From: Gemmatimonadales bacterium | GTDB taxonomy: Bacteria; Gemmatimonadota; Gemmatimonadetes; Gemmatimonadales; GWC2-71-9 | Direction: 5' to 3' | Assembly: GCA_035601435.1 (NCBI GenBank) | Contig: DATNOH010000059.1 | Location: 6,748-70,747 of the forward strand | Length of the DNA stretch: 64,000 nucleotides | In this document: positions 1 to 64,000 of the stretch, piece after piece | Numbering within the stretch: position 1 is the stretch's first letter | Layout: each line of letters begins with the position of its first letter | Position numbers and translations under genes: made by a program | Notes under the pieces: model-generated | The model's database searches: none | What the model was told of the DNA's origin: nothing | The model's input: the letters and a program-made list of their open reading frames with translations, nothing else

Positions 1-532
1 AGTCGCGACCCTCGGCGCGGAGCCCGATGCGCCCGACCCGGTACTCCAGGCCTGCGCCGAAATTGCCGGCGAACTTGGTCCAGGTGTCAGTGGCACCGAG
101 TTGATGCACGCTAATGGCGCCCGCCCCGCCCAACAGATAGGGACTGAGGGTGGCGGAGCCGGCCTGAATCGGATAGCGCAACACGACTGCCGCGTCGTAG
201 GTGAACTTGTTGAACTTCCCCCGGCCCGGCAGCGCGGCGCCACGGACGCTGTCCTGCGCCCAGCTGCCGCTGGCACGGATGCCGACATTGCGCTGCAGCC
301 ACGCGGTCCCGTCGATCGAGCCGATCCAGCCCAATCGCCAGTCGGCGGTACCCGCAGAGTTCAAATTGGCGGCGCCCGAAAGCCCGCCAAACCCGCCGCC
401 CAGCGTGAAGCGATCGGACCAGGAATTGACCGGCTCCGGGGCCGGCGTGCGGGCCTGGGCGCGGAGCGCGAGGGGCGCGCTCATTGCCACGCCCAGGGCC
501 ACGACGAGGTTGGAGACGAAACGCGGCGACAT
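1..532 (-). CDS. outer-membrane beta-barrel protein (porin/OMP_b-brl-like); C-terminal part lies beyond the window edge
   Basis: Own reverse translation from ATG at 530-532 (GGAGGA 4 nt upstream) gives MSPRFVSNLVVALGVAMSAPLALRAQA, a signal peptide. Gly/aromatic-rich alternating strands follow (TLGGGFGG, FAGNFGAGLEYRVG). Not in the ORF track because there is no stop inside the window. Confidence 0.55.
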   Translation of the reverse strand, partial: MSPRFVSNLVVALGVAMSAPLALRAQARTPAPEPVNSWSDRFTLGGGFGGLSGAANLNSAGTADWRLGWIGSIDGTAWLQRNVGIRASGSWAQDSVRGAALPGRGKFNKFTYDAAVVLRYPIQAGSATLSPYLLGGAGAISVHQLGATDTWTKFAGNFGAGLEYRVGRIGLRAEGRD

Positions 533-576
533 AGGTTCCTCCAATGGGTCAGAAGTAGAATGATGCCTGCTCAGCA

Positions 577-609
577 GTTCATGAATGAACTATATCCCGG
601 GAAAGTTCC
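577..609 (-). promoter_or_regulatory. 33-bp conserved element, copy A (GGAACTT-N14-TCATT with GTTCAT-N2-ATGAAC palindrome)
   Basis: The minus strand reads GGAACTTTCCCGGGATATAGTTCATTCATGAAC, ending 44 nt upstream of the OMP ATG at 532. 21/33 positions are identical to the copies at 3375-3407 and 63508-63540. Confidence 0.5.
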
Positions 610-638
610 GGGGAACTTCCTAACCATCTCGATCATTG

Positions 639-652
639 GTTCATTTATGAAC
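639..652. promoter_or_regulatory. GTTCAT-N2-ATGAAC palindrome, copy B
   Basis: GTTCATTTATGAAC is a perfect 6-2-6 inverted repeat 30 nt upstream of the rhodanese ATG (682). It lacks the GGAAC-N14 arm of copies A, C and D. Confidence 0.4.
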
Positions 653-681
653 GATTATCGAACCCTGGAGAGGAGCGACGC

Positions 682-1089
682 ATGACGCCACCAGCGGCAC
701 CCGACCCGGCGAACGCCACGCCGGACGAGGGGCCCCCAGTATCGGGCCTGACCGCCCAGCAGGCGCACGAGCTGGTGGCGGCCGGTCGCGGCGCGCTGGT
801 CGACACCCGCGACCGGCGGTTGTTCGACAACGCGCACGCGGCGGGCGCGCTGTCACTGCCGCTCGCCACCATCGAAGCCGCCCAGGGGCATGCGCCCGCG
901 GGTCTGCTGCCGCCCGATCGCAAGATCATCCTGTACTGCGCGTGAGTGGATGAGCGCACAAGCGCCCGGGCGGCGCGACGGCTGATCGCGGCGGGATACG
1001 ATGAGCGCAACGTCGCCGTGCTGCTCGGCGGCATTCGCGCCTGGCATCAGGCGGGGTACCCGCTCCAGAAGTGGACCGATGGCGCATGA
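682..1089 (+). CDS. rhodanese-like domain protein interrupted by an in-frame TGA at 943-945 (selenocysteine candidate or pseudogene)
   Basis: The ORF track ends at ...KIILYCA-TGA. The same frame stays open for 47 more codons (VDERTSARAARRLIAAGYDERNVAVLLGGIRAWHQAGYPLQKW), which complete a rhodanese fold. The TGA sits inside the catalytic loop C-A-*-V-D-E-R. Confidence 0.6.
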
Positions 1090-1125
1090 GCCGCGCCGTC
1101 GCGGTATGAGCATCGCCGCGATACT

Positions 1126-2508
1126 TTGCGCTTCATGGTCGACGTCCTAACCGCCCTGCGCGAAGGGCTCGCGCCTCATTACACCGTCGAGCGGGAGATC
1201 GGCGCCGGCGGCATGGCGCGTGTGTTCCTCGCCGCAGAACGCCATCCGCCGCGCAAGGTGGCGGTGAAGGTGATGAACCCCGAGGTCGCCGGGTCCGAGT
1301 TTCGCGAGCGCTTCATCCGGGAAGTCGAGCTCACGTCGCGGCTCAGCCACCCGCACATCGTGCCGATTCTCGCCGCGGACGAATGCCTGTTCGTGCCGGA
1401 TGGTCCCGACGGCCTGTGCTACTACGTGATGCCCTACATCGAGGGCGAGTCGTTGCGAGCCCGCCTGGAGCGGGAGCAGCGGCTGCCCCTCGAGCAGGCG
1501 GTGCGCATTGCTCTCGAGGTCGCCGATGCCCTGTCCTACGCACACGCGCAGGGCATCATCCATCGCGACATCAAGCCCGAAAACATCCTCCTGTCGGGAG
1601 ATCACTCCTGGGTGGCGGACTTCGGCATCGCCCGCGCGATCAGTGCCGCGGGCGGCCACACGCTCACGGGGGGCCACCCGGTGGGCTCGCTGGCCTACAT
1701 GAGCCCTGAGCAGCTGATGGGGAGCCGCGCCATCGATGCGCGCACCGACGTGTACAGCTTGGGGGGCGTGCTGTACGAGATGCTGGTCGGCGAGGCGCCA
1801 TTCCTGGGACTCACCGGTGGCTCACCGCGCGGCGGCACGGCCCTCGACAAGGTGCTGCGCGCGCAAGGCGTGAGCCACCGCAGCGAGCGGGCCGTCAAGG
1901 AGACTGTCGCCCGCGCGCTCGCGCCCGAGCCAGGCGACCGTTTCGGATCTGTCGACGAGCTCGCGACCCGCCTCCGCGACGCGGTAAGCCGACGGCTGGT
2001 CCTGCGGCTGCCGCAGGCGCGCTGGAAGGTGGCGCTGCTGGGCGTAGTCACGCTCGCGGCGCTGGGCGTGGCGGCGGTGGCGCTGCTGGGCAAGCGCCCC
2101 CCGGCACTCGACCCGAGGCGCGTCGTGGTCGCGGGGTTCGAAGACCTCTCGGGCGACTCGACCCTCGCCCCGTTGGGCCGCATCGCGGCCGATTGGCTCA
2201 CGCAGGCGCTGGCACGACGCGGTGGGCTGGAGGTCGTGCCCGGCGCCGGTACCGGCCATCTCCAGCCCGCGGACATCCGAGCCCTGGCCGCCCAGACCGG
2301 GGCGGGGACGGTGATCTCGGGAACGTACTACCGTGAAGGGGACTCGGTCTTTTTCCACGTGCAGGTCATCGACGCGGCGCGGGGTACGCTGCGGCGTGGC
2401 GTGGAGCCGGTTGGTGCGCCGCGGCGAGCGCCCACCCAAGGGGCCGAGGCGCTGGGCTACCGCCTCACCGCCTTGTTCGACACGCTGTTTCCCCGCACCA
2501 ACGACTGA
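1126..2508 (+). CDS. serine/threonine protein kinase with TM segment and C-terminal periplasmic domain
   Basis: Hanks kinase motifs GAGGMARVF, VAVK, HRDIKPENILL, DFGIAR, SPEQ. TM helix VALLGVVTLAALGVAAVALL. TTG start at 1126; alternative ATG at 1135. Confidence 0.9.
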   Translation: MRFMVDVLTALREGLAPHYTVEREIGAGGMARVFLAAERHPPRKVAVKVMNPEVAGSEFRERFIREVELTSRLSHPHIVPILAADECLFVPDGPDGLCYYVMPYIEGESLRARLEREQRLPLEQAVRIALEVADALSYAHAQGIIHRDIKPENILLSGDHSWVADFGIARAISAAGGHTLTGGHPVGSLAYMSPEQLMGSRAIDARTDVYSLGGVLYEMLVGEAPFLGLTGGSPRGGTALDKVLRAQGVSHRSERAVKETVARALAPEPGDRFGSVDELATRLRDAVSRRLVLRLPQARWKVALLGVVTLAALGVAAVALLGKRPPALDPRRVVVAGFEDLSGDSTLAPLGRIAADWLTQALARRGGLEVVPGAGTGHLQPADIRALAAQTGAGTVISGTYYREGDSVFFHVQVIDAARGTLRRGVEPVGAPRRAPTQGAEALGYRLTALFDTLFPRTND

Positions 2509-2522
2509 CGCCACACATCAAT

Positions 2523-3365
2523 TCACAGGGTGAACCCGACTCCCACGCCGACGGACGACACGTGGTCGCGGTAGAATTCGCCGTACGGCGCCGGCCCCGT
2601 GTATCCCTTGAGCAGCACGCTCCACCGCCTGCCGGACCCGAGCGCGACGTCCGGGTCGCCGAGCTCGAGACCGGTCACCACGCTCCACCCCACCTGCCAC
2701 TTGTGATCCTCCGACGCTTTGGCATCCAACCCCGCCACGAGGCGTCCCGTAGCGAACCTGCCGAGTCGTACCAACGCCCGGGGCTGGCGGTATTCCACGC
2801 CGCCATGCAGCACGCCGGGTTTCAGATCGGCCGGCGAGTGGGCGAAGATGTACGCCCCGCCGCCATACACCCGCCAGCGGGACGCTTCACTGGCCACGAG
2901 GAGCTCGGCCGCCTGGAACGTCAGATCCACCCGCTGCGCGTGGTTGTGGACCAGGTACTCGTCGCCCAGGTGGGAGCTCTGGTGGTACACACGGAAGCGG
3001 GTCGCGAAGCTGCCGCGCCGGTACGTGATCGGCAAGCCGACGAGGTAGTCGGTGTTCAGCAGGTCGGTGGTCGAGGACTGCATGTTGAACTCGGAAAACA
3101 CGCCCGCAGCGATCGCTACCTGCCAGTCCCGCCCGCGCACGAGGCCGATGGTCTGCCCGAACCCGACGCTTCCCAGGCGCGACGCTAGACGAGTCGAATG
3201 GGCCCACAGGTACGTCGCGAAGAATTGCGGCTCCTGGGGATCCGCCAGGAGCGGCTCGAACACGACCCTCTCGGTCCCCGCCCCATCCGTCGGCGCCTGA
3301 GCGCCGATCCCCCGGGAGCCCACGAGCGCCGCCATGAGCAGCGCGCCGACTAGTTTGGTCTTCAT
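2523..3365 (-). CDS. secreted outer-membrane beta-barrel protein (DUF1207-like)
   Basis: Signal peptide MKTKLVGALLMAALVGSRGIGAQA. FEPLLADPQEPQF motif, alternating beta pattern, C-terminal aromatic end GVGVGFTL. The family name is from memory and was not searched. Confidence 0.65.
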   Translation of the reverse strand: MKTKLVGALLMAALVGSRGIGAQAPTDGAGTERVVFEPLLADPQEPQFFATYLWAHSTRLASRLGSVGFGQTIGLVRGRDWQVAIAAGVFSEFNMQSSTTDLLNTDYLVGLPITYRRGSFATRFRVYHQSSHLGDEYLVHNHAQRVDLTFQAAELLVASEASRWRVYGGGAYIFAHSPADLKPGVLHGGVEYRQPRALVRLGRFATGRLVAGLDAKASEDHKWQVGWSVVTGLELGDPDVALGSGRRWSVLLKGYTGPAPYGEFYRDHVSSVGVGVGFTL

Positions 3366-3374
3366 GGTGTTTAG

Positions 3375-3407
3375 TGCATTAATGAACTATGTTGCGTGGG
3401 AGTTCCC
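3375..3407 (-). promoter_or_regulatory. 33-bp conserved element, copy C
   Basis: The minus strand reads GGAACTCCCACGCAACATAGTTCATTAATGCAC, ending 9 nt upstream of the DUF1207-like ATG (3365). Confidence 0.5.
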
Positions 3408-3576
3408 GTCCCGGCGGTGCCCGCCAACCGGTGAGTCGCGATGTCTGCGCGGCATCGGGCCGTCCGCCCTAACGCCAAGCATCACAACATGTTGCCCTTG
3501 ATGAGCCGGCGCCCGCAAGCCGCTCCCTTGTGACACGGACCACCGTAGTGAATCGTGTGGGCCCGCATACTGTTCC

Positions 3577-5502
3577 ATGGTCGCGCCTATGGCCTTACGG
3601 ATCCTGTTGTTGGAAGACGTGCCGGCGGACGCCGCGCTGCTCGAACGCCACCTGTCCAGGTCGGGATTGGAGTTCGTCAGCGAGCGGGTAGACACGCGCG
3701 CCCGCTTCGAAGAGGCGCTGCGGGACTTCGTGCCGGATATCATCCTGTCCGACCACGGCCTCCCGGGGTTCGACGGAGCCGCGGCGCTCGCGCTGGTCAA
3801 CGAACGCTTCCCCACCCTTCCGGTCATTCTGGTTACGGGCTCGCTCAACGAGGAAAAAGCGGTCGAGTTCATGAAGGCGGGCGCCGCCGACTACATCCTG
3901 AAGGACCACCTGACCCGACTGCCCGAGGCCATCCGGCGCGCCCTGCGGGAACGGCTGCTGCGCGAGGAGCGCGAGCAAGCCGTCGCCGCGCTACGGGCGT
4001 CGGAAGCCCAGTACCGCTCGATGTTCGAGAGCACACCGTATCCCATGTGGGTCTTCGACCTGGAGACGCACCGCGTGCTGGCGGTGAACGGCGCCGCGAT
4101 CAAGCATTACGGGTACTCGCGCGACGAGTTCCTGGCGCTGCGCATCGAGGACCTGCGTCCGCCCGAGGATGTCCCGGCCCTGCTGCGACACCTCGAGACC
4201 ATGCCCTCCGAATATCACAACGCCGGTACGTGGCGGCATCGCAGGAAGGACGGGACGCTCATCGAGGTGGAGACCAGCGGTCACGGAATCACGTTTGCCG
4301 GCCGGCGGGCGGAGCAAGTCGTGATCAACGACGTAACGGAGCGAAAGCGGCTCGAGGAGCAGTTCCGCCAGGCGCAGAAGATGGAGGCCGTAGGGCGTCT
4401 CGCGGCCGGAGTGGCGCACGACTTCAACAATCTCCTGACCGCGATCCTGGGCACGACCGACCTGATGCTCGAGGACATGCAGGCGGACGATGCCGATCGC
4501 GAAGGCCTGCTCGACATCCGGAGCGCGTCGGAGCGGGCCGCCGTGCTGACGCGGCAGCTGCTCACGTTCAGCCGCCAGCAGGTGGTGTCTCCCCAGGTGC
4601 TGCGCCTGAACGAACTCGTCCTGGAGCTGGAAAAGCTGCTGCGCCGTCTGCTGGGCGAGGACGTGGCGATCCGGGTCGGGGTCGCACCCGATTGCGGGGC
4701 CGTGAAGGCCGACCCGGGCCAGCTCGAGCAGGTCATCGTGAATCTCGCGGTGAACGCGCGTGATGCGATGCCGAATGGTGGACGCCTCACGATCGAAACA
4801 AAGAACGTCGATCTCGACGCCGAGTATCCCACCGATCGGGTCACCATTCCCGCGGGGCGCTACGTCATGCTGGCCGTCACCGATACGGGGACGGGGATGG
4901 ACGCGCAAACCAAGGCCCGGATCTTCGAGCCATTCTTCACGACGAAGCCCGTCGGCAAGGGAACCGGGCTGGGCCTCGCTACGGTGTACGGCGCGGTGAA
5001 GCAGAGCGGCGGATACATCTGGCTGTACAGCGAAGTGGGACAAGGCACGAGCTTCAAGATCTACCTGCCGCGGATCGACGCCGCGGAGCCGCAAGCGGCG
5101 GCGGCCGAGGCGGCGGTGCCGCTCGACGGCTCCGAGACGGTGCTAGTCGCCGAGGACGAAGACGCGGTGCGCCAGATCATCGAAAAGGCGCTTCAGGCGC
5201 GGGGGTACACTGTGATGGTCGCACGGGGCGGAACCGAGGCCCTCGCCATCGCGGGCCGCCATGCCGGGCAGATCGACCTCCTGGTGACCGACGTGGTGAT
5301 GCCGGACATGAACGGGCGGGCCCTGTCCGAGCGCCTGACGCACGTGCGACCCACGATCAAGACGCTGTATCTGTCCGGTTACACCGACGACGCGATCCTG
5401 CATCACGGTGTCCTGGAAGAGGGCGTCGCCTTCCTGCAGAAACCGTTTTCGCTCGGAGCGTTGGCGCGCAAGGTCCGCGAAGTGATCGAGGCCCGCCCCT
5501 GA
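3577..5502 (+). CDS. hybrid sensor histidine kinase (REC-PAS-HisKA-HATPase-REC)
   Basis: N-terminal receiver (RILLLEDVP...ILSDHGLPGFDG). PAS (YRSMFESTPYPMWVFD). H-box VAHDFNNLL. N/G boxes NARDAMP, DTGTGMD, GTGLGLA. C-terminal receiver (VLVAEDE...LVTDVVMPDMNG). Confidence 0.92.
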   Translation: MVAPMALRILLLEDVPADAALLERHLSRSGLEFVSERVDTRARFEEALRDFVPDIILSDHGLPGFDGAAALALVNERFPTLPVILVTGSLNEEKAVEFMKAGAADYILKDHLTRLPEAIRRALRERLLREEREQAVAALRASEAQYRSMFESTPYPMWVFDLETHRVLAVNGAAIKHYGYSRDEFLALRIEDLRPPEDVPALLRHLETMPSEYHNAGTWRHRRKDGTLIEVETSGHGITFAGRRAEQVVINDVTERKRLEEQFRQAQKMEAVGRLAAGVAHDFNNLLTAILGTTDLMLEDMQADDADREGLLDIRSASERAAVLTRQLLTFSRQQVVSPQVLRLNELVLELEKLLRRLLGEDVAIRVGVAPDCGAVKADPGQLEQVIVNLAVNARDAMPNGGRLTIETKNVDLDAEYPTDRVTIPAGRYVMLAVTDTGTGMDAQTKARIFEPFFTTKPVGKGTGLGLATVYGAVKQSGGYIWLYSEVGQGTSFKIYLPRIDAAEPQAAAAEAAVPLDGSETVLVAEDEDAVRQIIEKALQARGYTVMVARGGTEALAIAGRHAGQIDLLVTDVVMPDMNGRALSERLTHVRPTIKTLYLSGYTDDAILHHGVLEEGVAFLQKPFSLGALARKVREVIEARP

Positions 5503-6998
5503 CGGAGCTGCCCCTCGTCGCCCGGGCGCGGGGGCACGGTGACCGACCGGCGATCATCGCCGGCGAGGGCACGTTCAGCTATCGCGACCTGCTCGACGCC
5601 TCGGCGAGCGTCGCCCAGTGCCTGCTCGCCGGGCGCAGCGACCTCGGGGAGGCCCGGGTCGCCTTCCTCGCCCCTCCCGGCTTTCACCACGTCGCCACCC
5701 AGTGGGGGATCTGGCGGGCCGGCGGCATCGCCGTTCCGCTCGCCGTCTCTCACCCGCCCGCGGAGCTCGCCTATGTGATCCGCGATTCCGAGGCCGAGAC
5801 TGTCGTCGTGCACTCCGATTTCGCCGCCATGATGCAGGTGGTGCACCTGCCGCCGGCGACGCGAACCGTCACGACCGACGACGCGGTGGGTACCGCTCCC
5901 CGCTCCCCGCTCCCCGTACTGGCGGACGGGCGGCGGGCCATGATGGTCTACACCAGCGGCACGACGGGCAAGCCCAAGGGCGTGGTGACGACGCACGCGA
6001 ACATCGCGGCTCAGGTCACCAGCCTCGTTACGGCTTGGGAATGGCGGGCGGACGATTGGATCCTGCTCGTGCTGCCGCTCCATCACGTGCACGGGATCAT
6101 CAACGTCCTCAGCTGCGCCCTGTGGGCCGGAGCGCGCTGCGAGATGCTAGCGAAGTTCGACGCGGAGCACGTCTGGGGCCGCATCGCCGCCGGCGAGCTG
6201 ACCCTGTTCATGGCGGTCCCCACCATTTACGGAAGGTTGATCACGGCCTGGGACGGCGCCGCGCCCGAGCGGCGCCTCGAATGGTCGGCCGGCTGCGCCC
6301 GGCCCCGGATGCGGCTCATGGTCTCGGGATCGGCGGCGCTGCCGGTGCAGCGCCTCGAGCGGTGGCGCGAGATCAGCGGCCACGTCCTGCTCGAGCGCTA
6401 CGGCATGACCGAGATCGGCATGGCACTCGGCAACCCGCTGCACGGCGAGCGGCGACCGGGATGCGTGGGCACGCCGCTGCCCGGTGTGGAGGTGCGTCTG
6501 GTGGACGATGCGGGCCGGGCCGTGCCCGCAGGCACGCCCGGCGAAATCGAGGTGCGCGGCGCAACGGTGTTTCTCGAGTACTGGCGGCAGCCGGACGCGA
6601 CCGCCGAGGCGTTCAGGGACGGCTGGTTCCGCACCGGCGACGTCGCCGTGCTCGAAACCGGGTCGTACCGCATCCTCGGCCGCTCGAGTGTGGACATCAT
6701 CAAGACCGGCGGCTTCAAAGTGTCGGCGCTCGAGGTGGAGGAGGTGCTGCGGACGCACCCGGCGATCGCGGAGTGCGCCGTGGTGGGCGTGGAGGATCCC
6801 GAGTGGGGCGAGCGCATCTGCGCCGCAGTCGAGCGGCGTGGTGAAGCCGAATTGACGCTCGCCGTCCTGCAGGCGTGGGCCAAAGATCGTCTCGCACCCT
6901 ACAAGATTCCGCGCGCGCTCCGCTCGGTAGGTGCGCTGCCGCGGAACGCCTTGGGTAAGGTCACCAAGGGCGAGGTGGCGAAGCTCTTCACTGCTTAA
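5499..6998 (+). CDS. acyl-CoA synthetase, malonyl-CoA synthetase (MatB/ACSF3)-like; proposed CTG start overlapping the upstream TGA
   Basis: AMP-binding motif MVYTSGTTGKPKGV and DIIKTGGFKVSALEVE. The ORF track starts at GTG 5775, but the same frame encodes a typical N-terminus (TELPLVARARGHGDRPAIIAGEGTFSYRDLL...) back to 5499. There is no in-frame ATG/GTG/TTG between 5280 and 5775. The minimal safe CDS is 5775-6998. Confidence 0.8.
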   Translation: MTELPLVARARGHGDRPAIIAGEGTFSYRDLLDASASVAQCLLAGRSDLGEARVAFLAPPGFHHVATQWGIWRAGGIAVPLAVSHPPAELAYVIRDSEAETVVVHSDFAAMMQVVHLPPATRTVTTDDAVGTAPRSPLPVLADGRRAMMVYTSGTTGKPKGVVTTHANIAAQVTSLVTAWEWRADDWILLVLPLHHVHGIINVLSCALWAGARCEMLAKFDAEHVWGRIAAGELTLFMAVPTIYGRLITAWDGAAPERRLEWSAGCARPRMRLMVSGSAALPVQRLERWREISGHVLLERYGMTEIGMALGNPLHGERRPGCVGTPLPGVEVRLVDDAGRAVPAGTPGEIEVRGATVFLEYWRQPDATAEAFRDGWFRTGDVAVLETGSYRILGRSSVDIIKTGGFKVSALEVEEVLRTHPAIAECAVVGVEDPEWGERICAAVERRGEAELTLAVLQAWAKDRLAPYKIPRALRSVGALPRNALGKVTKGEVAKLFTA

Positions 6999-7140
6999 GT
7001 GTCAAGGAGCTGTCAAAGTTCGGCGAATCCTCTTGTGAGGTCCCGGGCGGGCCGGCATGTTCGGCCTCTACACGGGAACGTTCCGACCCCCGGTCGCCTG
7101 CCGCCAGCGTTCACCGACACTTCCCACATCGGAGGCGACG

Positions 7141-8664
7141 ATGACGTCTGTTCGTCACGCGCCAGCGCGTGCGGTGCTGGTGCTGGCGCTTTGCGGCTCC
7201 CCTTCCGGCCTGGCGGCGCAATACTCGCGGTCGGCGCTCGATCCCATCACCAGTGCCGTGATGAAGCACCCCATCACCACGTCCTCGAGCGTGGCGCGGG
7301 ACCACTTCCTCCAGGGCCAGCGGGAATTCGATCTGGGCCGGTTCATCGACGCGAACGTGCACTTCAACGAAGCCGTTGCGGCCGATCCGAGCTTCGCGTT
7401 CGCGTACTTGAACGCCGCGTTTACCGCCAACTCGCTCGAAGAGTTCAAGCGCAATCTCGCGTTGGCCGAGCAGCACGCCGCGGCCGCCTCGGAGGCCGAG
7501 CGGCTGCAGATCCAGATGGCGCGCAAGGGATTCGACAATGATCTGGCAGGGCAGCTCGCGCTGGGGAAGCAGCTGGTGGAGAAGTATCCCGACAGCCCGC
7601 GCGCCTGGCTCGCCCTCGCCGGAGCCCAGATTGGGTTGAACAAGAACGAGGACGGGCGTGCCTCGATCGGGAAGGCGTTGGAGCTCTCGCCCAAGCTGTA
7701 CGTGGCGCACGCCACCATGGGGAACGACTACATCTTCGGGGAGCCGCGCGACTTTACGAAGGCGCTCGCGCACATGCAGGAAGCGGAAGCACTGGCGCCG
7801 GATGAGTCCAATGCGCACCTCCTCGTCGGCGATGCCTACCGGGCACAGCGCAATCTCGAGAAAGCCCGCGATGAGTACATGCGGGGCCACGAGCTCGATC
7901 CCAGGAGTGCCGCGCTGCTCGTGAAGGCTGGGCACGCCAACACGTTCCTGGGCGACTACGCGGCGGCGCGCGCCGATTACGATTCCGCCATGGCCGTGGG
8001 ACGGGCAAATGAAAAAGCCGCCTACGCTCCGTTCCGAGCCTACGTCAGCGTGTACGCAGGCGATCCCGAGGCGGCGATCACCGAGCTCAATCGGTTGGTC
8101 GCGTCCGTGGACGGCATGAGAGTCCCGGACCCGAAAGCCAACAAGGTCGCCGCGCTCACGAACGTCGTGGTCATCGCGACTCATACGCGCAACCGTGCGG
8201 CGGCGGAGCAAGCCCTGAAGCAGCTCGAGCCGCTGCTCATGCAACAGGCCGACGAAGCAGGCAACGCGGCGTTCCGGCGGGGACAACAGGCGACGATCGC
8301 ATACCTCGAAGGGTGGACCGCTGCGCGCCGCGGGGACTATGCGTCGGCCCAGCAGCAGGCCGACCGCATCAACCAGCTACTCGCCCCAGACGCGAACCCA
8401 CGGAAGCTCGAGCCGATGCACCAACTGGTGGGATTCATCGCGCTCTATCAGGGCAAGTACGATGAAGCGGCCGCACACCTGCGGCAGGGCAATCTGTTGG
8501 ACCCGTACATCAAGTATCAGTTCGCGGTCGCGACGGAGGGCGCGGGCGATGCCGCGCAGGCCAAGAAGCTGTTCCGCGAGATCGCCGACTACAACTTCAA
8601 TGCCTTGGGCTTCGCCCTGGTGCGAAAGGAGGCGCAACAGAAGGCTGGCAAGTCGGCGCTCTAG
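7141..8664 (+). CDS. secreted tetratricopeptide-repeat (TPR) protein
   Basis: GGAGG 6 nt upstream of ATG 7141. Signal peptide MTSVRHAPARAVLVLALCGSPSGLAAQ. Repeated A/L/Y-rich 34-aa helical repeats. The ORF-track start at 7057 is probably an over-extension. Confidence 0.8.
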   Translation: MTSVRHAPARAVLVLALCGSPSGLAAQYSRSALDPITSAVMKHPITTSSSVARDHFLQGQREFDLGRFIDANVHFNEAVAADPSFAFAYLNAAFTANSLEEFKRNLALAEQHAAAASEAERLQIQMARKGFDNDLAGQLALGKQLVEKYPDSPRAWLALAGAQIGLNKNEDGRASIGKALELSPKLYVAHATMGNDYIFGEPRDFTKALAHMQEAEALAPDESNAHLLVGDAYRAQRNLEKARDEYMRGHELDPRSAALLVKAGHANTFLGDYAAARADYDSAMAVGRANEKAAYAPFRAYVSVYAGDPEAAITELNRLVASVDGMRVPDPKANKVAALTNVVVIATHTRNRAAAEQALKQLEPLLMQQADEAGNAAFRRGQQATIAYLEGWTAARRGDYASAQQQADRINQLLAPDANPRKLEPMHQLVGFIALYQGKYDEAAAHLRQGNLLDPYIKYQFAVATEGAGDAAQAKKLFREIADYNFNALGFALVRKEAQQKAGKSAL

Positions 8665-8685
8665 GGGCCACGGCGGCTATCGACG

Positions 8686-9066
8686 TCATGCGTCGTAGGA
8701 GTCGCCCCAGCCCACGTCGAACACGCCGCCGCACTTCCCGCAGCGCATGTTGAGGGGCCCTTTCGCGAGCGGCGCTCGCGCGTGGCATTGCGGGCACACG
8801 CCATAGCGGGCACCCCAGCTGTGGGGCAGTTGCCGCGCGTTGCCGGGTCGCGGAACGATCGCCCAGACGCCGGGCGCTCGGCCCGTCATCTGCAGCGCAG
8901 CGCGCGGCACGTTGACGACGCGCTGGTTCACGTCCAGGACCGCGTCGGTGGTTGTCACTCGGAGCACCCGATACCATGCCCCGCGCCGTAGCGGGACGCT
9001 GGCATCGGAGCGTAACCGTGCCCACTGGCTGCCGCTCACTTTAAGCCTCCTTGTTGTCGAGAACAT
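8686..9066 (-). CDS. uncharacterised protein with C-terminal CxxC...CxxC zinc ribbon (paralog 1)
   Basis: MFSTTRRLKV...PLRRGAWYRV...YGVCPQCHARAPL...MRCGKCGGVFDVGW. About 45% identical over the core to the product of 26101-26457. The ORF-track 262-aa form overlaps the amidase, so I trimmed it to the ATG at 9064-9066. Confidence 0.6.
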   Translation of the reverse strand: MFSTTRRLKVSGSQWARLRSDASVPLRRGAWYRVLRVTTTDAVLDVNQRVVNVPRAALQMTGRAPGVWAIVPRPGNARQLPHSWGARYGVCPQCHARAPLAKGPLNMRCGKCGGVFDVGWGDSYDA

Positions 9067-9134
9067 CGGCGATTGTAGGCGCACTGGCGGGTGACGGCTG
9101 TCACGCGTTGCCGGGTCGGTCGCGGATGAGCAGC

Positions 9135-10553
9135 TTACCGGCTCGTCGCGTCGCGAAGCAGCGGCGGATGGCCGATGGGATGGCGCTGCTGGACGTGCGA
9201 TGCCAGGGCCAGCAGCGCCTCCTCGCCGAACGGCTTGCCGACGATCTGCAGACCCACCGGCAGCCCGTCGGGATCGACCCCGCAGGGTACCGAGGCAACC
9301 GGAAGACCGCTGAGACTCAACACGAACGTGGGCGCGATCCAGTCGACGTATGTCTCCATTTTCTTGCCGGCCACCGTTTCGGGATAATTCTGGTCCACCG
9401 GGAAGGGGGGGACCGCCATGCAGGGGGTGAGCAGGTGGTCGAACTTCCCGAAGAACTCGCGGAACAGATGCCACATGCGGCCGCGCGCCGCCTCAGCGGC
9501 GCCCAGGTCACGGCTCGTCGTGTCGAGCCCGGCGCGAATGTTACCCGCGACGTTGGCTCCGAATCGGTCCAGCTGGTCCATCCGCGGGAACATCTGCGCG
9601 ACGAACCACAACCCGCGTAGCGCGAGGAACGCCTTCCGCCCGAACGACAGGTCGAGCTCGATTTCGTCGACTTCCGCGCCGAGCTCACCGAGTCCGACGG
9701 CCGCCCGGCGGCACACTCGCTCGATGGCGGGATCGATCCCGATCCCGGCGATGTCGGGGCAGTAAGCAACTCGTAAGCCTTGCGGGATGGCGCGGCCCGC
9801 CGCGGCCACGAAGTTGCGGCCGGCGGTGGGCTGCGAGAGTGGAGAGAGGGAGCTCGGACCCGCTACGGCCTGGAGCATCAGAGCCACGTCCTGGGCGGTG
9901 CGGGCCATGGGGCCTTCGACTTGGAGCGTGTCCCACGCCCAGTCCGCTGGATAGGTCGGGATCAGCCCGATCGACGGCCGGAGCCCCACCACGCCGCAGA
10001 ACGACGCGGGGATGCGGAGCGACCCGCCCAGGTCCGTCCCCTCGGCGAGCGTGATCATCCCGGTGACGAGCCCCGCCGCCCCGCCGCCCGTCGAGCCGCC
10101 GGCGCTGCGCGTCGGGTCCCACGGGTTGCGCGTGCGGCCGAACACTTCGTTGAAGGTGTTCCCACCCGCGGCGAACTCGGGACAGTTCGTTTTTCCGAGA
10201 ATCACCGCACCCGCCTCCCGCAGCCGCCGCACCACCAGGGCATCCTCGGTGGGCACGTGATCCCGGTAAAGGGCCGACCCGTACGTCGTGCGGAGGCCCG
10301 CGACGGGCGTCACGTCCTTGATGCCGACCGGCAGGCCCGCCAGCAGACCCACCTCCTCGCCGCGCACCAGCCGCAGCTCGAGCTCGCCGGCCTGGTCGAG
10401 CGCCCGGGGGTTGAGCGTGACGACGGCGTTGACGGCGGGGTTGAAGCTCTCGACCCGCGCCAGGCACGCTTCGACCACCTCGACCGGCGACACCTCGCGC
10501 GACCGGACCAGCCGCGCGAGCTCAGTGGCGGAGCGCTCCGCTAGATCTTCCAT
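9135..10553 (-). CDS. amidase (amidase-signature family, GatA-like)
   Basis: AS motif GGSTGGGAAGLVTG and the conserved KD..PVAG region. Start taken at MEDLAERSATELARLV; it overlaps the upstream stop by 13 nt. Confidence 0.88.
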   Translation of the reverse strand: MEDLAERSATELARLVRSREVSPVEVVEACLARVESFNPAVNAVVTLNPRALDQAGELELRLVRGEEVGLLAGLPVGIKDVTPVAGLRTTYGSALYRDHVPTEDALVVRRLREAGAVILGKTNCPEFAAGGNTFNEVFGRTRNPWDPTRSAGGSTGGGAAGLVTGMITLAEGTDLGGSLRIPASFCGVVGLRPSIGLIPTYPADWAWDTLQVEGPMARTAQDVALMLQAVAGPSSLSPLSQPTAGRNFVAAAGRAIPQGLRVAYCPDIAGIGIDPAIERVCRRAAVGLGELGAEVDEIELDLSFGRKAFLALRGLWFVAQMFPRMDQLDRFGANVAGNIRAGLDTTSRDLGAAEAARGRMWHLFREFFGKFDHLLTPCMAVPPFPVDQNYPETVAGKKMETYVDWIAPTFVLSLSGLPVASVPCGVDPDGLPVGLQIVGKPFGEEALLALASHVQQRHPIGHPPLLRDATSR

Positions 10554-11338
10554 TCTCCCACGAACGCGACCGTGCGGCAGAATGCGGCCTCGCCTCCTTT
10601 GAACTTCCACGGGAAGCAGCCGACGATGAGGCGCTTGTTCTGGAGCTCGGGCGCCTCGATTTCGCCGCCCAGGTTCTCGATGTGGATGCAGTCCTTCGGG
10701 AACAGCGCGTTGTGGGTGAGCTGGTAGGCGGAGTCGGGGAACATCTTATCCACCGCGGCCTTGCCGCCGAATTTTTGCTCCGCCTTGGCGCGCACCTTGT
10801 CGCACTGGCCGTGGGCACCCTTACCCAGGAAGCGCCCGATCGGCAGGTTCATCGGGTGGTCGGTGGACACGCAGTCGACACCCCACACATGGATCTTCTT
10901 CTCCAGCAACCACGGCACCAGATCGGGATGCGCGCCGGGGTGATAGTGGTAGTAGCGCTCCTCGTCCGGCGTGGCGCCGAAGTCCGCGTAGCGATGCCAT
11001 CCCGTGTGCAGCAGCAGGAGGTCACCCGGTTTCACCTGGACTCGCTGCTCGATCATTTGCGGCGTGTAGACCGCCAGCTCGTCCATTTCGTCCCGCAGGT
11101 CCACGATCACGCCCGGGCCGCACAACCAATCGAGCGGCAGCTCGTCGATCGTCTTGCCGGCCGTGACGAAGTGGCGCGGCGCGTCGAGATGCGTGCCCAT
11201 GTGGTTCGAGGTCATGATGTACTGAGCGTTCACCCCGTGCTCTGCTTTGCGCTTGATGTATTTGACCTCGAACGGCGGGTAATAGGGCCAGAAGGAGCTG
11301 CGCTCGTTCAGGGGTTGGGAGAGGTCGTAGATCTTCAT
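10541..11338 (-). CDS. cyclase-family protein (kynurenine/arylformamidase-like)
   Basis: HMGTHLDAPRHF matches the HxGTHxDxPxH motif of the putative cyclase family. Start at MKIYDLSQPL. The upstream Arg-rich extension in the ORF track is rejected. Confidence 0.82.
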   Translation of the reverse strand: MKIYDLSQPLNERSSFWPYYPPFEVKYIKRKAEHGVNAQYIMTSNHMGTHLDAPRHFVTAGKTIDELPLDWLCGPGVIVDLRDEMDELAVYTPQMIEQRVQVKPGDLLLLHTGWHRYADFGATPDEERYYHYHPGAHPDLVPWLLEKKIHVWGVDCVSTDHPMNLPIGRFLGKGAHGQCDKVRAKAEQKFGGKAAVDKMFPDSAYQLTHNALFPKDCIHIENLGGEIEAPELQNKRLIVGCFPWKFKGGEAAFCRTVAFVGEWKI

Positions 11339-11378
11339 GGGCTCCTCGATCCCCGGGCTCGCACCCGGGGTCAGTTGT

Positions 11379-12254
11379 TTACGCCTTCTCTGCACGTTCG
11401 AACGCGCGCGCCAGCGCGCGGCGCGTGAGCACGGCAACGAGCCGACGGCGGTAGGCGGCCGACGCATGGATGTCGGAAGGCGGATCGATATCGCGCGTGG
11501 CCGCCGCCTCCCCCGCGGCGCGCAACAGCTCGGCCGACGGGGTCTGGCCGGAGAGCCCCTTCCCTGCCTCGGTTGCGAGCACCGGCCCATCGCCCACGCT
11601 CAGCAAGCCGATCCGCGCCTCCTTGCACCGACCGCGCGGGTCGAGCGTCACGATGGCTGCGACCCCGACCAGGGCGTAGTCCCCGTGGCGGCGCGCCAGT
11701 TCGAGAAACGCGGTGCCGCTCGAGGCGGGGAGCGGCGGGACTGCGATCTCGACCAGCAGCTCGCCCGGCTCGAGCGCCGTCTCGAGCATGCCCTTGAAGA
11801 ACTCACCCGCCGGAATCGAACGCTCGCCGCTGGAGCTCTTGGCCCGAAACCGCGCGTCGAGCGCCAGCATCACCGCCGGCAGCTCGGCCGACGGATCGGC
11901 ATGGGCGATGCTGCCTCCAATGGTCCCCCGGTTCCGGATCTGCGGGTGCGCGATGGAGGGCATCGCTTCGGCGAGCAGCGGCGCCGCGCGCGCAACCACG
12001 TCGCTCCGCTCGACTGCCCGCTGGCGCGTCATGGCGCCGAGCGCGACGCCCCCTGATTCGGCGCGCACGTACGCAAGCTCGGAAACCCCGTTGAGGTCCA
12101 CGAGCACCGCGGGCCGGGCCAGCCGGAAGTTCATCGCGGGAATGAGGCTCTGGCCGCCCGCCAGCGGCTTCGCTTCGCCACCGTGCTCGGCCAAGAGCGC
12201 CAGGGCCTCGTCCACCGTGGCCGGCGTGAAATACTCGAACGCCGCGGGCTTCAC
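11379..12254 (-). CDS. molybdo-hydroxylase FAD-binding (medium, CoxM-like) subunit, set 1
   Basis: MKPAAFEYFTPATVDEALALLAEHGGEAKPLAGGQSLIP is typical of the FAD_binding_5 N-terminus. GTGA overlap with the large subunit. Confidence 0.88.
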   Translation of the reverse strand: MKPAAFEYFTPATVDEALALLAEHGGEAKPLAGGQSLIPAMNFRLARPAVLVDLNGVSELAYVRAESGGVALGAMTRQRAVERSDVVARAAPLLAEAMPSIAHPQIRNRGTIGGSIAHADPSAELPAVMLALDARFRAKSSSGERSIPAGEFFKGMLETALEPGELLVEIAVPPLPASSGTAFLELARRHGDYALVGVAAIVTLDPRGRCKEARIGLLSVGDGPVLATEAGKGLSGQTPSAELLRAAGEAAATRDIDPPSDIHASAAYRRRLVAVLTRRALARAFERAEKA

Positions 12255-32065: not shown

Positions 32066-32506
32066 TCAGCGCACCCCCGCCCCCCGCGCCGCCGCGAGCC
32101 TCGCCTGCTGCTCGGCCGAGAGCGTGTTCTTGATGTTGATCAGCAGCGACATGTGGGCGCGCTTCACCTCGCGCTCCACGCCCAGAACCTCGTCCACCTG
32201 CGCCAGCGCCGCGGCCTGATCGACGGCGGGCTTCTCGAGGAGCGACGCGAGACGCTGCGACTGCTCCTGCATGCGCCACTGCAGGTCCACCACCTTGCTC
32301 TGAAAGTCCTGGATCGCCTTGGTGATGGTGGAGCGTTGCTCGGGACGGAGCCCGATGTCCTGCTGATGCTGCATCACCAGCTCCGGCGGAAACAGCGCGC
32401 GCGCGAGCGGATCCTCGGGAGCTTGCGGCGGTTGCTGCGCACCCGCCGCCGTCGCGACGACGAGCAGAGCCAACGTCGGAGCCCAGCACGTCCGAGATGC
32501 TTTCAC
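32066..32506 (-). CDS. periplasmic Spy/CpxP-like (LTxxQ-type) protein
   Basis: GGAGG 5 nt upstream of GTG 32504-32506. Signal peptide KASRTCWAPTLALLVVATAAGAQ. Helical Q/E-rich body with LSAEQQARL. Third gene of the ECF sigma operon (GTGA overlap). Confidence 0.65.
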   Translation of the reverse strand: MKASRTCWAPTLALLVVATAAGAQQPPQAPEDPLARALFPPELVMQHQQDIGLRPEQRSTITKAIQDFQSKVVDLQWRMQEQSQRLASLLEKPAVDQAAALAQVDEVLGVEREVKRAHMSLLINIKNTLSAEQQARLAAARGAGVR

Positions 32507-32850
32507 AGAATCCTCCGATCGAGACCCCTGGGTCCGAGCTGCGGGACACTGCGCAGCAGCTCGACGCCCGGGAGCTTGAGCAGGAAATCGGTGGGCGCTT
32601 GCCACCGTACGGTCGCGAGATCGATCACCAGACGGTCGTTCTTCTGTACACGCCAGGTCGAGGCGACTACCACGGCTATCACCGCGACGACCACCACGGC
32701 GGCGAGCCCCAGGTCGCGGCGGCGCGGCACGCCCGCCCGGCGAGCGCGCGCCGCAGCAACGGTCGCCTGGAACGACGGGCTGGCGGCTGCGTCTTTCCGG
32801 CGCAACGCCGCGAAGGCCTTGTTGAGGTGCTGATCGTCGCGCTCGATCAT
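32503..32850 (-). CDS. anti-sigma factor-like single-pass membrane protein
   Basis: Lies directly downstream of the ECF sigma (ATGA overlap). One TM helix, LGLAAVVVVAVIAVVVAS. Confidence 0.65.
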   Translation of the reverse strand: MIERDDQHLNKAFAALRRKDAAASPSFQATVAAARARRAGVPRRRDLGLAAVVVVAVIAVVVASTWRVQKNDRLVIDLATVRWQAPTDFLLKLPGVELLRSVPQLGPRGLDRRIL

Positions 32851-33362
32851 TCTGGCTCCTCCTCCAGCAGCTTCTTGAGCGCGGCCTTGCCACGCTCGTA
32901 GTGGGTGCGGGCGGTGCCCAAAGACACTCCCGCGACAGCGGCCGCCTCGGCGATCGTCAGGTCCTCGTAGAACACCAGATGGAGGACCTGGCGCTGGCGC
33001 GCCGACAATCGCCCGAGCGCGCGCATCAGCCGGGCCGTTTCGTCGGCGCCGACGAGCGCCGTCGCGGGATCGGGCCTGCCGTCCACCGCCTCCGGGCCGA
33101 GCAGTAACGACGCGAGCGGAATCCAGCGCCGCAGCGCGGCCCGCCGTCGCACTTCGCGCGCCGTCCGCGCGATCACGCCGAATACGAACGTACGGAGGCT
33201 CGAGCGTCCGTCGAAGCGCGCGCGGCCGTCCAGGAGCTTCAAGTAGCTCGCCTGGAGCACGTCCTCGGCCGCGCTCCGATCCCAGCCGCAGCAGCTCAGC
33301 GCCCAGCCGAACGCGGCGGCGTGCAGCTGCTCGAGCTCGGCCGTCAGGTCGGCAGGTGACAT
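32847..33362 (-). CDS. ECF-type RNA polymerase sigma-70 family factor
   Basis: Region 2 (DVLQASYLKLL...FRTFVFGVIARTARE) and region 4 HTH (LSARQRQVLHLVFYEDLTIAEAAAVAGVSLGTARTHYERG). Confidence 0.9.
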   Translation of the reverse strand: MSPADLTAELEQLHAAAFGWALSCCGWDRSAAEDVLQASYLKLLDGRARFDGRSSLRTFVFGVIARTAREVRRRAALRRWIPLASLLLGPEAVDGRPDPATALVGADETARLMRALGRLSARQRQVLHLVFYEDLTIAEAAAVAGVSLGTARTHYERGKAALKKLLEEEPE

Positions 33363-51904: not shown

Positions 51905-52085
51905 TGCCCAACCTCCCTGATGATGGCTAGTCGCTTGTTTATACGAACTCGATCCCTCGGAGGTTGAACGTCCAGCCGCACTCAGCGACCGCGGAACGCC
52001 ACACGTATCCCTGTCGGTGACGAGAGCGTCGTCAACGATTCAGTACGGAACTGGCGTTCGGGGAGTCTCGTTCGTGGTCGACAAG

Positions 52086-52257: not shown

Positions 52258-52896
52258 CTATTCCCGGTAGAGCGTCGGGAACTGCTGCTGCAACCGTTTC
52301 AGCTTTGGCAAGTCGTTGAAGGCGATGTAGGGCTGGTCGGTGTGGTTGGCCAGATAGTTCTGATGATAGTCCTCGGCGGCATAGAACCGCTCGAACGGCA
52401 CCACCTGGGTGACGATCGGACCGGAGAATACACCAACCTTGCTCAACTGAGCGATGTAGGCCTGCGCCGTCTGCTTCTCCGTTTCGTTTGAGTAGAAGAT
52501 CACCGAACGGTACTGGCTCCCCACATCCGGACCCTGGCGGTTCAGCTGTGTCGGATCGTGCGCCACCGAAAAGAAGACCCGCAGCAGCTCGCTGTAGGAG
52601 ATCTGCGACGGATCATACGTGATCTTCACCGACTCGGCATGCCCCGTCGCGCCGGTGCTCACGATCTCGTATCGTGCCGTGGCCGAGCCTCCGCCGGAGT
52701 AACCGGAGACGACGCTCTCGACGCCCTTCACATGCTTGAACACGGCGTCCACGCCCCAGAAGCATCCGCCCGCCAGCACGGCGACTTGCTCGCCCTTGGC
52801 TGGCGTAACGCGCGGCGCGGCCGCGTATGCCGGGATCTGTGCCCGAGCAGTGTTCACGGCCAGAAGTCCGGCCACGACGCCAAGGAGTCTCTTCAT
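52258..52896 (-). CDS. msrA: peptide-methionine (S)-S-oxide reductase, secreted form
   Basis: Signal peptide, then the catalytic GGCFWGVDAVF, GHAESVKITYDP and HDPTQLNRQGPDVGSQYRS. Confidence 0.92.
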   Translation of the reverse strand: MKRLLGVVAGLLAVNTARAQIPAYAAAPRVTPAKGEQVAVLAGGCFWGVDAVFKHVKGVESVVSGYSGGGSATARYEIVSTGATGHAESVKITYDPSQISYSELLRVFFSVAHDPTQLNRQGPDVGSQYRSVIFYSNETEKQTAQAYIAQLSKVGVFSGPIVTQVVPFERFYAAEDYHQNYLANHTDQPYIAFNDLPKLKRLQQQFPTLYRE

Positions 52897-53032
52897 ACCG
52901 AAAGCTAACGCTCCCTGATCGAGTGTAGTTCCGTGCGTCTCGTAAACTACGCTGCGAGCCGTCTTTGGCCATGTCGGTGCGCCCGCGCGCGTCGCGTGGT
53001 AGTATCGTGAGTCCCCGTCCTGACGGTGCCCG

Positions 53033-63507: not shown

Positions 63508-63540
63508 GGAACTTCCCGGCGGTATGGTTCATTCATGAAG
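63508..63540 (+). promoter_or_regulatory. 33-bp conserved element, copy D
   Basis: GGAACTTCCCGGCGGTATGGTTCATTCATGAAG lies between the AKR start (63491, minus) and a small plus-strand ORF starting at 63542. Confidence 0.5.
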
Positions 63541-63541
63541 C

Positions 63542-63688
63542 ATGACTCGGTACGCTACGCAATTCCGTCTGGTGGCCCAAGGGCTGGTCGACTACCTCGC
63601 CGGTATCGATCCCAGCGCCGTCGGGCTGGTCGCCGCGCTGCACATCCTGGTGCGGAGCCGAGGCGGGGATAGGCGTAACGCGCGATGA
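63542..63688 (+). CDS. possible 48-aa ORF (maybe a truncated regulator N-terminus)
   Basis: Own translation: MTRYATQFRLVAQGLVDYLAGIDPSAVGLVAALHILVRSRGGDRRNAR. GC3-rich codons. Below the ORF-track size cutoff. It would be nearly leaderless if copy D is a promoter. Confidence 0.3.
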   Translation: MTRYATQFRLVAQGLVDYLAGIDPSAVGLVAALHILVRSRGGDRRNAR

Positions 63689-63825
63689 ACATGCGCCGGG
63701 CGACACTGCGCCGCTAGATTCGCCGCGTGCCGCAGACAACAAACATCGTCACCCCACCCGATCAGGTAGTCAACTAGCCATTCGCTTCTCCCCTGCCCGC
63801 ACCACGGGAACATGCAGGCAATTTG

Positions 63826-63858
63826 ATTCATTACTGAACCGTACCGGGGGGCGGCAAC
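63826..63858 (-). promoter_or_regulatory. degenerate copy E of the conserved element
   Basis: The plus strand ATTCATTACTGAAC-N14-GCAAC keeps the palindrome core (TTCAnTAnTGAA) and the N14 spacing, but the GGAAC arm is degenerate (GTTGC on the minus strand). Confidence 0.25.
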
Positions 63859-63980
63859 GTGGTTTCGTGAAACTGTGGCGCGATCGAGACCGTCTCGTTG
63901 TCGATATGAGCCTAGCCCGAACGTCTAGTACAGAGCAGCAGTGCTTCACCCTTTATCAGACCGAAGGAGATTACCCCGTA

Positions 63981-64000
63981 TGCGCAGTCGTCTCTTCGCG
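63981..64000 (+). CDS. 5' end of a gene running off the window
   Basis: GGAGA 8 nt upstream of ATG 63981 (MRSRLFA...). Only 6 complete codons are visible. Confidence 0.3.

Follow-up and report, generated by a model that had tools for sequence, protein, structure and literature searches.

We found a short DNA element that recurs five times in a 64,000-nucleotide stretch of Gemmatimonadales DNA (the window, at its full length), always in front of a gene, and which we read, with a probability of roughly 60%, as the composite promoter-operator of one Gemmatimonadales regulon. Its first module, GGAAC-N17(18)-CATT, would be a -35/-10 pair of the ECF (group 4) sigma type, and its second, the inverted repeat GTTCA-N4-TGAAC, would serve as operator for a MarR-family winged-helix dimer. 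The proposed regulon, which we consider probable in this composition, includes outer-membrane beta-barrel and DUF1207 proteins, an RND efflux pump, DoxX, a rhodanese selenoprotein, pirin and a small ORF.

Copies of the element in the window and their target genes

The exact pair GGAAC-N17-CATT occurs five times in the window, which has a G+C content of 68%, against 0.17 occurrences expected, and none of 100 shuffles reached five. The palindrome GTTCATNNATGAAC, with up to two mismatches, is likewise present five times against 0.5 expected, a number that again no shuffle among 100 attained. The repeated element described in the initial annotation is thus real. All five copies of the pair are intergenic on a codon-bias gene map, each is aimed at the adjacent gene, and the palindrome accompanies the pair in every case (5/5; Table 1).

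Three full and two partial copies had been described at first. The sequences of A and D are exactly as given then, and by our own count, too, A, C and D agree at 21 of 33 positions. For copy C the quoted sequence is right, while its coordinates (reverse complement of 3375-3407) were one off; correspondingly, the distances to the start codon of 44 nt for A and 1 nt for D stand, and the 9 nt given for C measure 8 nt. Both supposedly partial copies, B and E, prove to be full, with pair and palindrome, and in place of a fragment at 63826-63858 there is the complete, in-register copy E, which begins upstream of it. The symmetrical sequence AAGTTCC-gg-GGAACTT at 603-618 is present as reported, and consists of the divergent GGAAC boxes of copies A and B, standing back to back.

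Table 1. Element copies, their target genes and the neighbouring regulator gene. Positions refer to the window unless another contig is named.
Feature	Position	Strand	Details
Copy A	577-609	-	GGAAC 605-609, CATT 584-587, palindrome GTTCATGAATGAAC 577-590
Copy A, pair GGAAC-N17-CATT	584-609	-	
Copy B, displaced arrangement	612-652	+	GGAAC 612-616, CATT 634-637 (pair spans 612-637), perfect palindrome GTTCATTTATGAAC 639-652, beginning one base after the pair
Copy C	3374-3406	-	GGAAC 3402-3406, CATT 3381-3384, palindrome 3374-3387, 1 mismatch
Copy C, pair GGAAC-N17-CATT	3381-3406	-	
Copy D	63508-63540	+	GGAAC 63508-63512, CATT 63530-63533, palindrome 63527-63540, 1 mismatch
Copy E	63807-63839	+	GGAAC 63807-63811, CATT 63829-63832, palindrome ATTCATTACTGAAC 63826-63839, 2 mismatches
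Copy E, full 33-bp sequence	63807-63839	+	GGAACATGCAGGCAATTTGATTCATTACTGAAC, in register
Outer-membrane beta-barrel gene	1-532	-	truncated by window edge; target of copy A
Rhodanese-related gene	682-1089	+	in-frame TGA 943-945, motif LYCA-U; target of copy B
DUF1207 protein gene	2523-3365	-	signal peptide; Pfam 7.5e-49; target of copy C
Conserved 48-aa ORF	63542-63688	+	target of copy D
Start of copy E target gene	63981-64000	+	counterpart in L119 366 aa, faint CzcB_C match
MarR gene	L115 18905-19366		

Copy A lies upstream of an outer-membrane beta-barrel gene, a homologue of which scores 27.4 bits with the OMP_b-brl model, just below the Pfam cut-off of 28.7 bits. Copy B faces the rhodanese-related gene, whose ATG is at 682. 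This gene has an in-frame TGA in its active-site loop (ILYCA-U-VDERTS), beyond which the reading frame continues, and the same split by TGA is found in six related loci. Its best NCBIfam model is rhodanese_LYCAU, 'rhodanese-related (seleno)protein' (5.4e-16, 58 bits, below the cut-off of 115 bits), and folding gave no convincing SECIS hairpin at this gene (z = 0.98); its product is probably a selenoprotein. The target of copy C had been called DUF1207-like, an assignment that the Pfam match confirms. Copy D ends 1 nt upstream of the ATG of the conserved 48-aa ORF, the mRNA of which is therefore probably leaderless, and a divergent AKR gene begins 16 nt away on the other side. This conserved ORF, of about 48-54 aa and with no Pfam match, also belongs to the regulon elsewhere (L026 2072-2203, L051 5703-5867, L073), directly upstream of marR in the latter two loci.

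Between copy E and the start of an MFP-like gene, which probably encodes a membrane-fusion protein, there are 141 nt. The leader between the two (63840-63980, 141 nt) shares the blocks GAAACTGTGGCGCGATCGAGACCGTCTCG, TGTCGAT and ACGTCTA with its counterpart in L018 and contains a perfect 13-bp palindrome, CGAGACCGTCTCG, at 63885-63897. It has no Rfam match; a role as second operator or as leader RNA is possible. An Rfam search of the whole window at gathering thresholds, and of both its ends at E <= 1, returned nothing relevant, and no tRNA or tmRNA genes were found in the window.

A putative ECF-type promoter

The pair GGAAC-N17-CATT is asymmetric, keeps a fixed spacing, and lies always upstream of a gene and aimed at it, as sigma factor boxes do. 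With moderate confidence we therefore regard it as a putative promoter with an ECF-type -35/-10 pair. The usual ECF -10 box follows the -35 box after 16-17 nt and has a CGT or GTC core, as in the promoters of sigmaW (TGAAAC-N16-CGTA) and EcfG (GGAAC-N16/17-CGTT); sigmaE promoters read GGAACTT-N16-TCAAA. A spacer of only 14 nt had been counted in the initial annotation and seemed too short; counted from GGAAC to the four-nucleotide -10 box, it comes to N17 and falls in the usual ECF range, so that this worry is gone.

The -10-like box is CATT, which has no CGT core; it stands at N17 in most copies and at N18 in the three in which GGAAC is displaced by one base, and it is unchanged where the operator does not cover it. 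Within copies A, C, D and E the box is part of the palindrome (GTTCATT). In the displaced arrangement of the rhodanese promoter (copy B), which is seen at six loci, the palindrome sits 8 bp further downstream, and the spacing GGAAC-N17-(T/C/G)CATT is nonetheless constant. The palindrome centre of this arrangement varies between loci (TTTA, GATA, CATA, and CTAA in contig L115): at window positions 644-647 and L115 positions 11492-11495, three of the four central bases differ (TTTA versus CTAA, read toward the rhodanese gene), and the arms are intact in both. The central TT, which forms the end of CATT, occurs by our own tally in 15 of 16 GGAAC-type copies chosen without regard to TT, against one of 22 palindromes at marR starts (Fisher p = 1.6e-8; these palindromes are described below). 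Conservation also extends to bases that were not selected for, namely a G just before GGAAC (31 of 37 copies) and a T at position 6 (28 of 37). Element position 18 is a T in every copy (37/37), although the base opposite it in the palindrome varies. The ATG of the small ORF follows CATT after 8 nt in the window and in L026 alike.

A scan of the three intergenic regions with the sigma70 consensus gave no sites, and a TTGACA box 17 bp upstream of the -10-like hexamer is present in no GGAAC-type copy. In the sampled DNA, GGAAC-N17-CATT was never seen without any palindrome, although two copies have a decayed right arm; such an absence is unusual for an independent sigma regulon. Judged by eye, the aligned copies do not fit sigma54, sigma28, sigma32 or Bacteroidetes-type (-33/-7) promoters. 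The sequence CTAAC (620-624) was considered as a degenerate GGAAC of copy B and discarded in favour of the exact pair at 612-637, which is kept in six loci. Two other ECF-like boxes, of the form GGAACT-N16-CGTT and with no palindrome, are located between genes at 52907-52932 (-) and 52047-52072 (+); msrA (52258-52896, Pfam PMSR 2.4e-60) follows one of them and a 59-aa ORF the other, and both are probably part of a regulon under another sigma factor.

The ECF sigma gene at 32847-33362 had been suggested as the source of the cognate factor. It matches the sigma70-ECF model and is part of an operon on the minus strand (32066-33362), together with a 115-aa ORF and a Metal_resist (Spy/CpxP-like) gene at 32066-32473. 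The element motif is absent upstream of this sigma gene and nothing links the gene to the element, which speaks against it as the cognate sigma. A search for ECF sigma factors in about 0.7 Mb of motif and MarR loci (blastp, and phmmer on six-frame ORFs, each with a single query and of limited sensitivity) retrieved only one, in L072, which is a homologue of the window's own ECF and has no evident connection to the element. Moreover, in the loci searched, no ECF sigma or anti-sigma gene was found that adjoins a motif locus or carries the motif upstream. The sigma factor for GGAAC/CATT is thus hypothetical. The initial proposal of an ECF promoter accordingly survives for the pair itself, whose spacing is kept when it is displaced from the palindrome, and falls for the sigma gene to which it had been tied.

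The palindrome and a conserved MarR subfamily

The strict pattern GGAAC-N12-T-N-GTTCATT-N-ATG-M-A was run against 185,579 species genomes and yielded 34 matches, which by our own rough estimate is about the number expected by chance. Fifteen of these lie in Gemmatimonadales, Gemmatimonadaceae or Gemmatimonadetes MAGs, and 14 of the 15 are intergenic and show extra similarity that had not been selected for (GGAACyTT...aTAGTTCATTCATGAAc); the remaining matches, in unrelated genomes, look like chance. Additional copies, found with a position matrix, are clustered in the motif-selected loci. Altogether 38 distinct GGAAC-type copies were collected, and where the downstream gene could be called, it is co-oriented and usually 1-60 nt away; nine distinct copies are in front of DUF1207 family genes. 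Orthologues of window copies were recognized in L005 (A and B), L115 (A), L026 (D, with the same 1-nt gap to the ATG) and L018 (E). Conservation in related genomes, which the initial annotation had named as a check, is therefore borne out by copies at orthologous positions in MAGs with diverged spacers. The stretch conserved among copies is confined to a core of about 33-40 bp.

Gene calling, clustering and Pfam searches in 14 loci picked by motif alone brought up the same families repeatedly: MarR, OMP_b-brl (to which window gene 1-532 belongs), DUF1207 (with window gene 2523-3365), two DoxX/SURF4-like families and pirin. The same MarR subfamily is encoded within 8 kb in eight of these 14 loci. 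The regulator matches Pfam MarR_2 (2.5e-13), its best relative in the PDB is a generic MarR (E = 1.9e-15), and no curated equivalog model matches the subfamily. Its members share the motif C-VRSNITQLVDRLEKDGLVRR, with an invariant Cys at the recognition helix.

With an alignment of these MarR proteins, 80 metagenomic loci (526 kb) were chosen by protein, not by motif. They hold 48 palindromes GTTCA-N4-TGAAC with at most one mismatch, against about five expected by our own estimate. About 22 of the 48 overlap the start of marR in the form TTGACC-N17/18-TAT(A/T)GT, followed directly by TCAnnnATGAAC, in which ATG-AAC is the Met-Asn start of marR. These palindromes span -10 to +6, and GGAAC is found at none of them. 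To judge from its sequence, this arrangement is a sigma70-type promoter with a leaderless gene and an autoregulatory operator, a combination typical of repressors that control their own gene. The marR transcripts of this subfamily seem to lack a leader; TTGACC-N17/18-TATTGT-N6-ATG, in which the start codon falls in the right arm of the operator, is found at L055 ~3260-3310, L069 ~1840-1890, L102 ~5950-6005 and some 20 other places. The GGAAC-bearing copies of the MarR-selected loci front other genes, often right behind the marR stop codon. Over 37 aligned copies the palindrome arms are conserved, the right arm TGAAC as well as the left, and the repeat is short and inverted, with half-site centres about 10 bp apart, which fits a winged-helix dimer. 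We infer that the palindrome is very probably the operator of a MarR-family repressor, predicted to bind there.

Two other readings of the palindrome were set aside. A 22-bp palindrome, striking in L024 and L010/L017, is not claimed, because over the 37 copies only one outer pair (16,37) exceeds permutation (p = 0.0065) and the remaining outer pairs do not. The Cheo box, a LexA SOS box of the GAAC/GTTC type, reads GAAC-N4-GTTC and precedes lexA, recA or uvr genes; our palindrome is ordered GTTC-N6-GAAC and has no SOS genes downstream.

No homologue of the motif-linked MarR is encoded within the window. A look-up with the window's DUF1207 protein led to contig L115, which is 99.6% identical to window positions 1-12138 and extends 7.5 kb past the left edge. 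There the OMP gene is followed by a gene for a 184-aa secreted protein, and a sixth element copy (GGAACCTTCCCCTTACATAGTTCATTACTGCAC) then heads MFP-RND-OMF-MarR-DoxX. The MarR gene, about 7 kb beyond the window edge, belongs to the same subfamily as the motif-linked MarR (hhalign probability 100%). Because the element also stands at the head of the operon that contains this gene, the window's five copies are probably controlled by a regulator encoded just beyond the window edge. The 184-aa gene between OMP and MFP was considered as a hidden sigma and rejected, as its product has a signal peptide and no Pfam match. In four other loci (L045 ~5450-5590, L093 ~671-830, L099 and L087) the MFP-RND-OMF genes between element and marR are deleted, and the 5' leader of the pump is joined to the final OMF codons (...GWPAARE-stop). 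The right arm of the palindrome is decayed in L045 and L093.

A composite model, its alternatives and known systems

In the composite promoter-operator that we propose, transcription would start about 6-8 nt after CATT, i.e. at the end of the 33-bp element. Such a start would leave the small ORF behind copy D without a leader, would give the OMP and rhodanese genes leaders of 30-50 nt with a Shine-Dalgarno sequence, and would result in very short leaders at some DUF1207 genes. The palindrome overlaps the -10 box and the predicted start in copies A, C, D and E; in copy B it lies just after the -10 box, across the predicted start. A bound repressor would thus block RNA polymerase, and its release by a signal could lead to expression of the targets. 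The presence of DoxX, pirin, rhodanese and an efflux pump among the targets, together with the invariant Cys at the recognition helix, hints at an electrophile, thiol stress or a toxic compound as inducer, which is our guess.

Among the alternatives, the least improbable is a sigma70 promoter with a MarR operator, in which nATAGT (element positions 16-21) would be the -10-like box, transcription would start at the A of the internal ATG, and GGAAC would bind a second transcription factor or act as an architectural element. The nATAGT hexamer occupies the exact place of TATTGT/TATAGT in the marR promoters, T18 and T21 in it never vary, 21 of 37 copies have A17, and a start 6 nt earlier than ECF geometry would have it is possible for the overlapping copies. 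We nevertheless consider this explanation unlikely. No GGAAC-type copy has a TTGACA-like box at the required distance, GGAAC would sit at -27 to -23, which is odd for an activator, and the central TT would be left unexplained. At the rhodanese promoter, moreover, the hexamer reads ATTGGT or ATTGCT and so lacks the A at position 2, even though GGAAC-N17-CATT is preserved there. A promoter that depends on an ECF sigma with no repressor, the palindrome being a by-product of -10 and start-site preferences, would agree with the classic GGAAC(TT) box and with the envelope-protein targets. It is very improbable in view of the equally conserved right arm TGAAC, the occurrence of the same palindrome at sigma70-type marR promoters that lack GGAAC, and the B arrangement, in which the palindrome is a separate unit downstream of CATT.

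A single regulator that binds three half-sites (GAAC-N14-GTTC-N6-GAAC) as a dimer of dimers or a tetramer, with the promoter elsewhere, was the second interpretation in the initial annotation. In its favour, GGAACT resembles the half-site TGAACT, and copies A, C, D and E all have the same spacing. The part of that interpretation which invoked a dimeric regulator on the GTTC/GAAC palindrome holds, and this regulator is most likely of the MarR family; the three-half-site scheme itself is quite improbable. GGAAC is missing at the regulator's own operator sites (the ~22 marR-start palindromes), it is shifted by 8 bp relative to the palindrome at the rhodanese promoter with N17 to CATT kept, it is off by 1 bp in three copies, and the centre-to-centre distance of 18 bp is off the helical repeat. 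That the element is short, palindromic, multi-copy and intergenic might suggest a dispersed repeat of the REP or MITE kind that takes no part in regulation. The chance of this is negligible: all copies face a gene, their flanks are dissimilar, orthologous positions are kept across MAGs with diverged spacers, the same gene families follow repeatedly, and no Rfam family matches.

The composite promoter-operator can be extended, tentatively, to a regulon in which an as yet unclassified alternative sigma factor of Gemmatimonadales reads GGAAC-N17-CATT and one MarR repressor gates every single promoter, a combination that we regard as possible and rather doubtful. If true, this would be a hard-wired two-key (AND) control over an envelope, efflux and thiol-stress programme, from which the repressor's own gene escapes via a separate, sigma70-type leaderless promoter. 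Gemmatimonadota are abundant in soil, and hardly any of their promoters or regulons have been defined experimentally. The element offers a candidate operator for a conserved MarR subfamily as well as a candidate consensus for an alternative-sigma promoter, and could provide compact, portable promoter and operator parts for Gemmatimonadota genetics. Furthermore, by linking DUF1207, DoxX/SURF4-like proteins, the 48-aa ORF and the LYCAU rhodanese selenoprotein to an RND pump, the regulon gives a hint of what these proteins do. A literature search on this element returned nothing relevant.

The predicted repressor-operator pair has its nearest parallels in MexR, which represses mexAB-oprM in Pseudomonas from the operator GTTGA-N5-TCAAC, and in MarR with marRAB in E. 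coli, both of them systems that control RND efflux pumps. Common to these systems and the one predicted here are a winged-helix MarR protein, a short inverted repeat with 5-bp arms on the promoter, autoregulation and an MFP-RND-OMF pump among the targets. In contrast to them, the operator here is GTTCA-N4-TGAAC, marR is found at the 3' end of the operon for the pump or accompanied by doxX alone, the regulon adds OMP, DUF1207, DoxX, pirin and the rhodanese selenoprotein, and the target promoters do not appear to be of the sigma70 type. The putative promoter resembles those of sigmaE in E. coli and AlgU in Pseudomonas (GGAACTT-N16-TCAAA or TCTGA) and of alphaproteobacterial EcfG (GGAAC-N16-17-CGTT) in its GGAAC(TT) -35 box, its spacer (N17 to a 4-nt -10 box), its tolerance of +/-1 bp and its envelope targets. 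It differs from them in the -10 box, which is CATT and not CGTx or TCAAA, in that no cognate sigma/anti-sigma operon or autoregulated copy was found in the loci searched here, and in that every copy is coupled to a probable repressor operator.

With respect to function, MhqR and YodB of the Firmicutes are comparable, MarR-type repressors of the DoxX-like MhqP, reductases and dioxygenases that govern quinone and electrophile regulons. As in those regulons, a MarR-type repressor with a conserved Cys is associated here with DoxX-family proteins and redox enzymes (pirin, and an aldo-keto reductase nearby), although phylum and operator are different, outer-membrane and efflux components are included, and the inducer is a guess. 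Our results thus describe a new regulon and a new motif in a little-studied phylum, built of known kinds of parts and with no new type of mechanism; the sole unusual feature is that an alternative-sigma promoter and a MarR operator seem always to come together.
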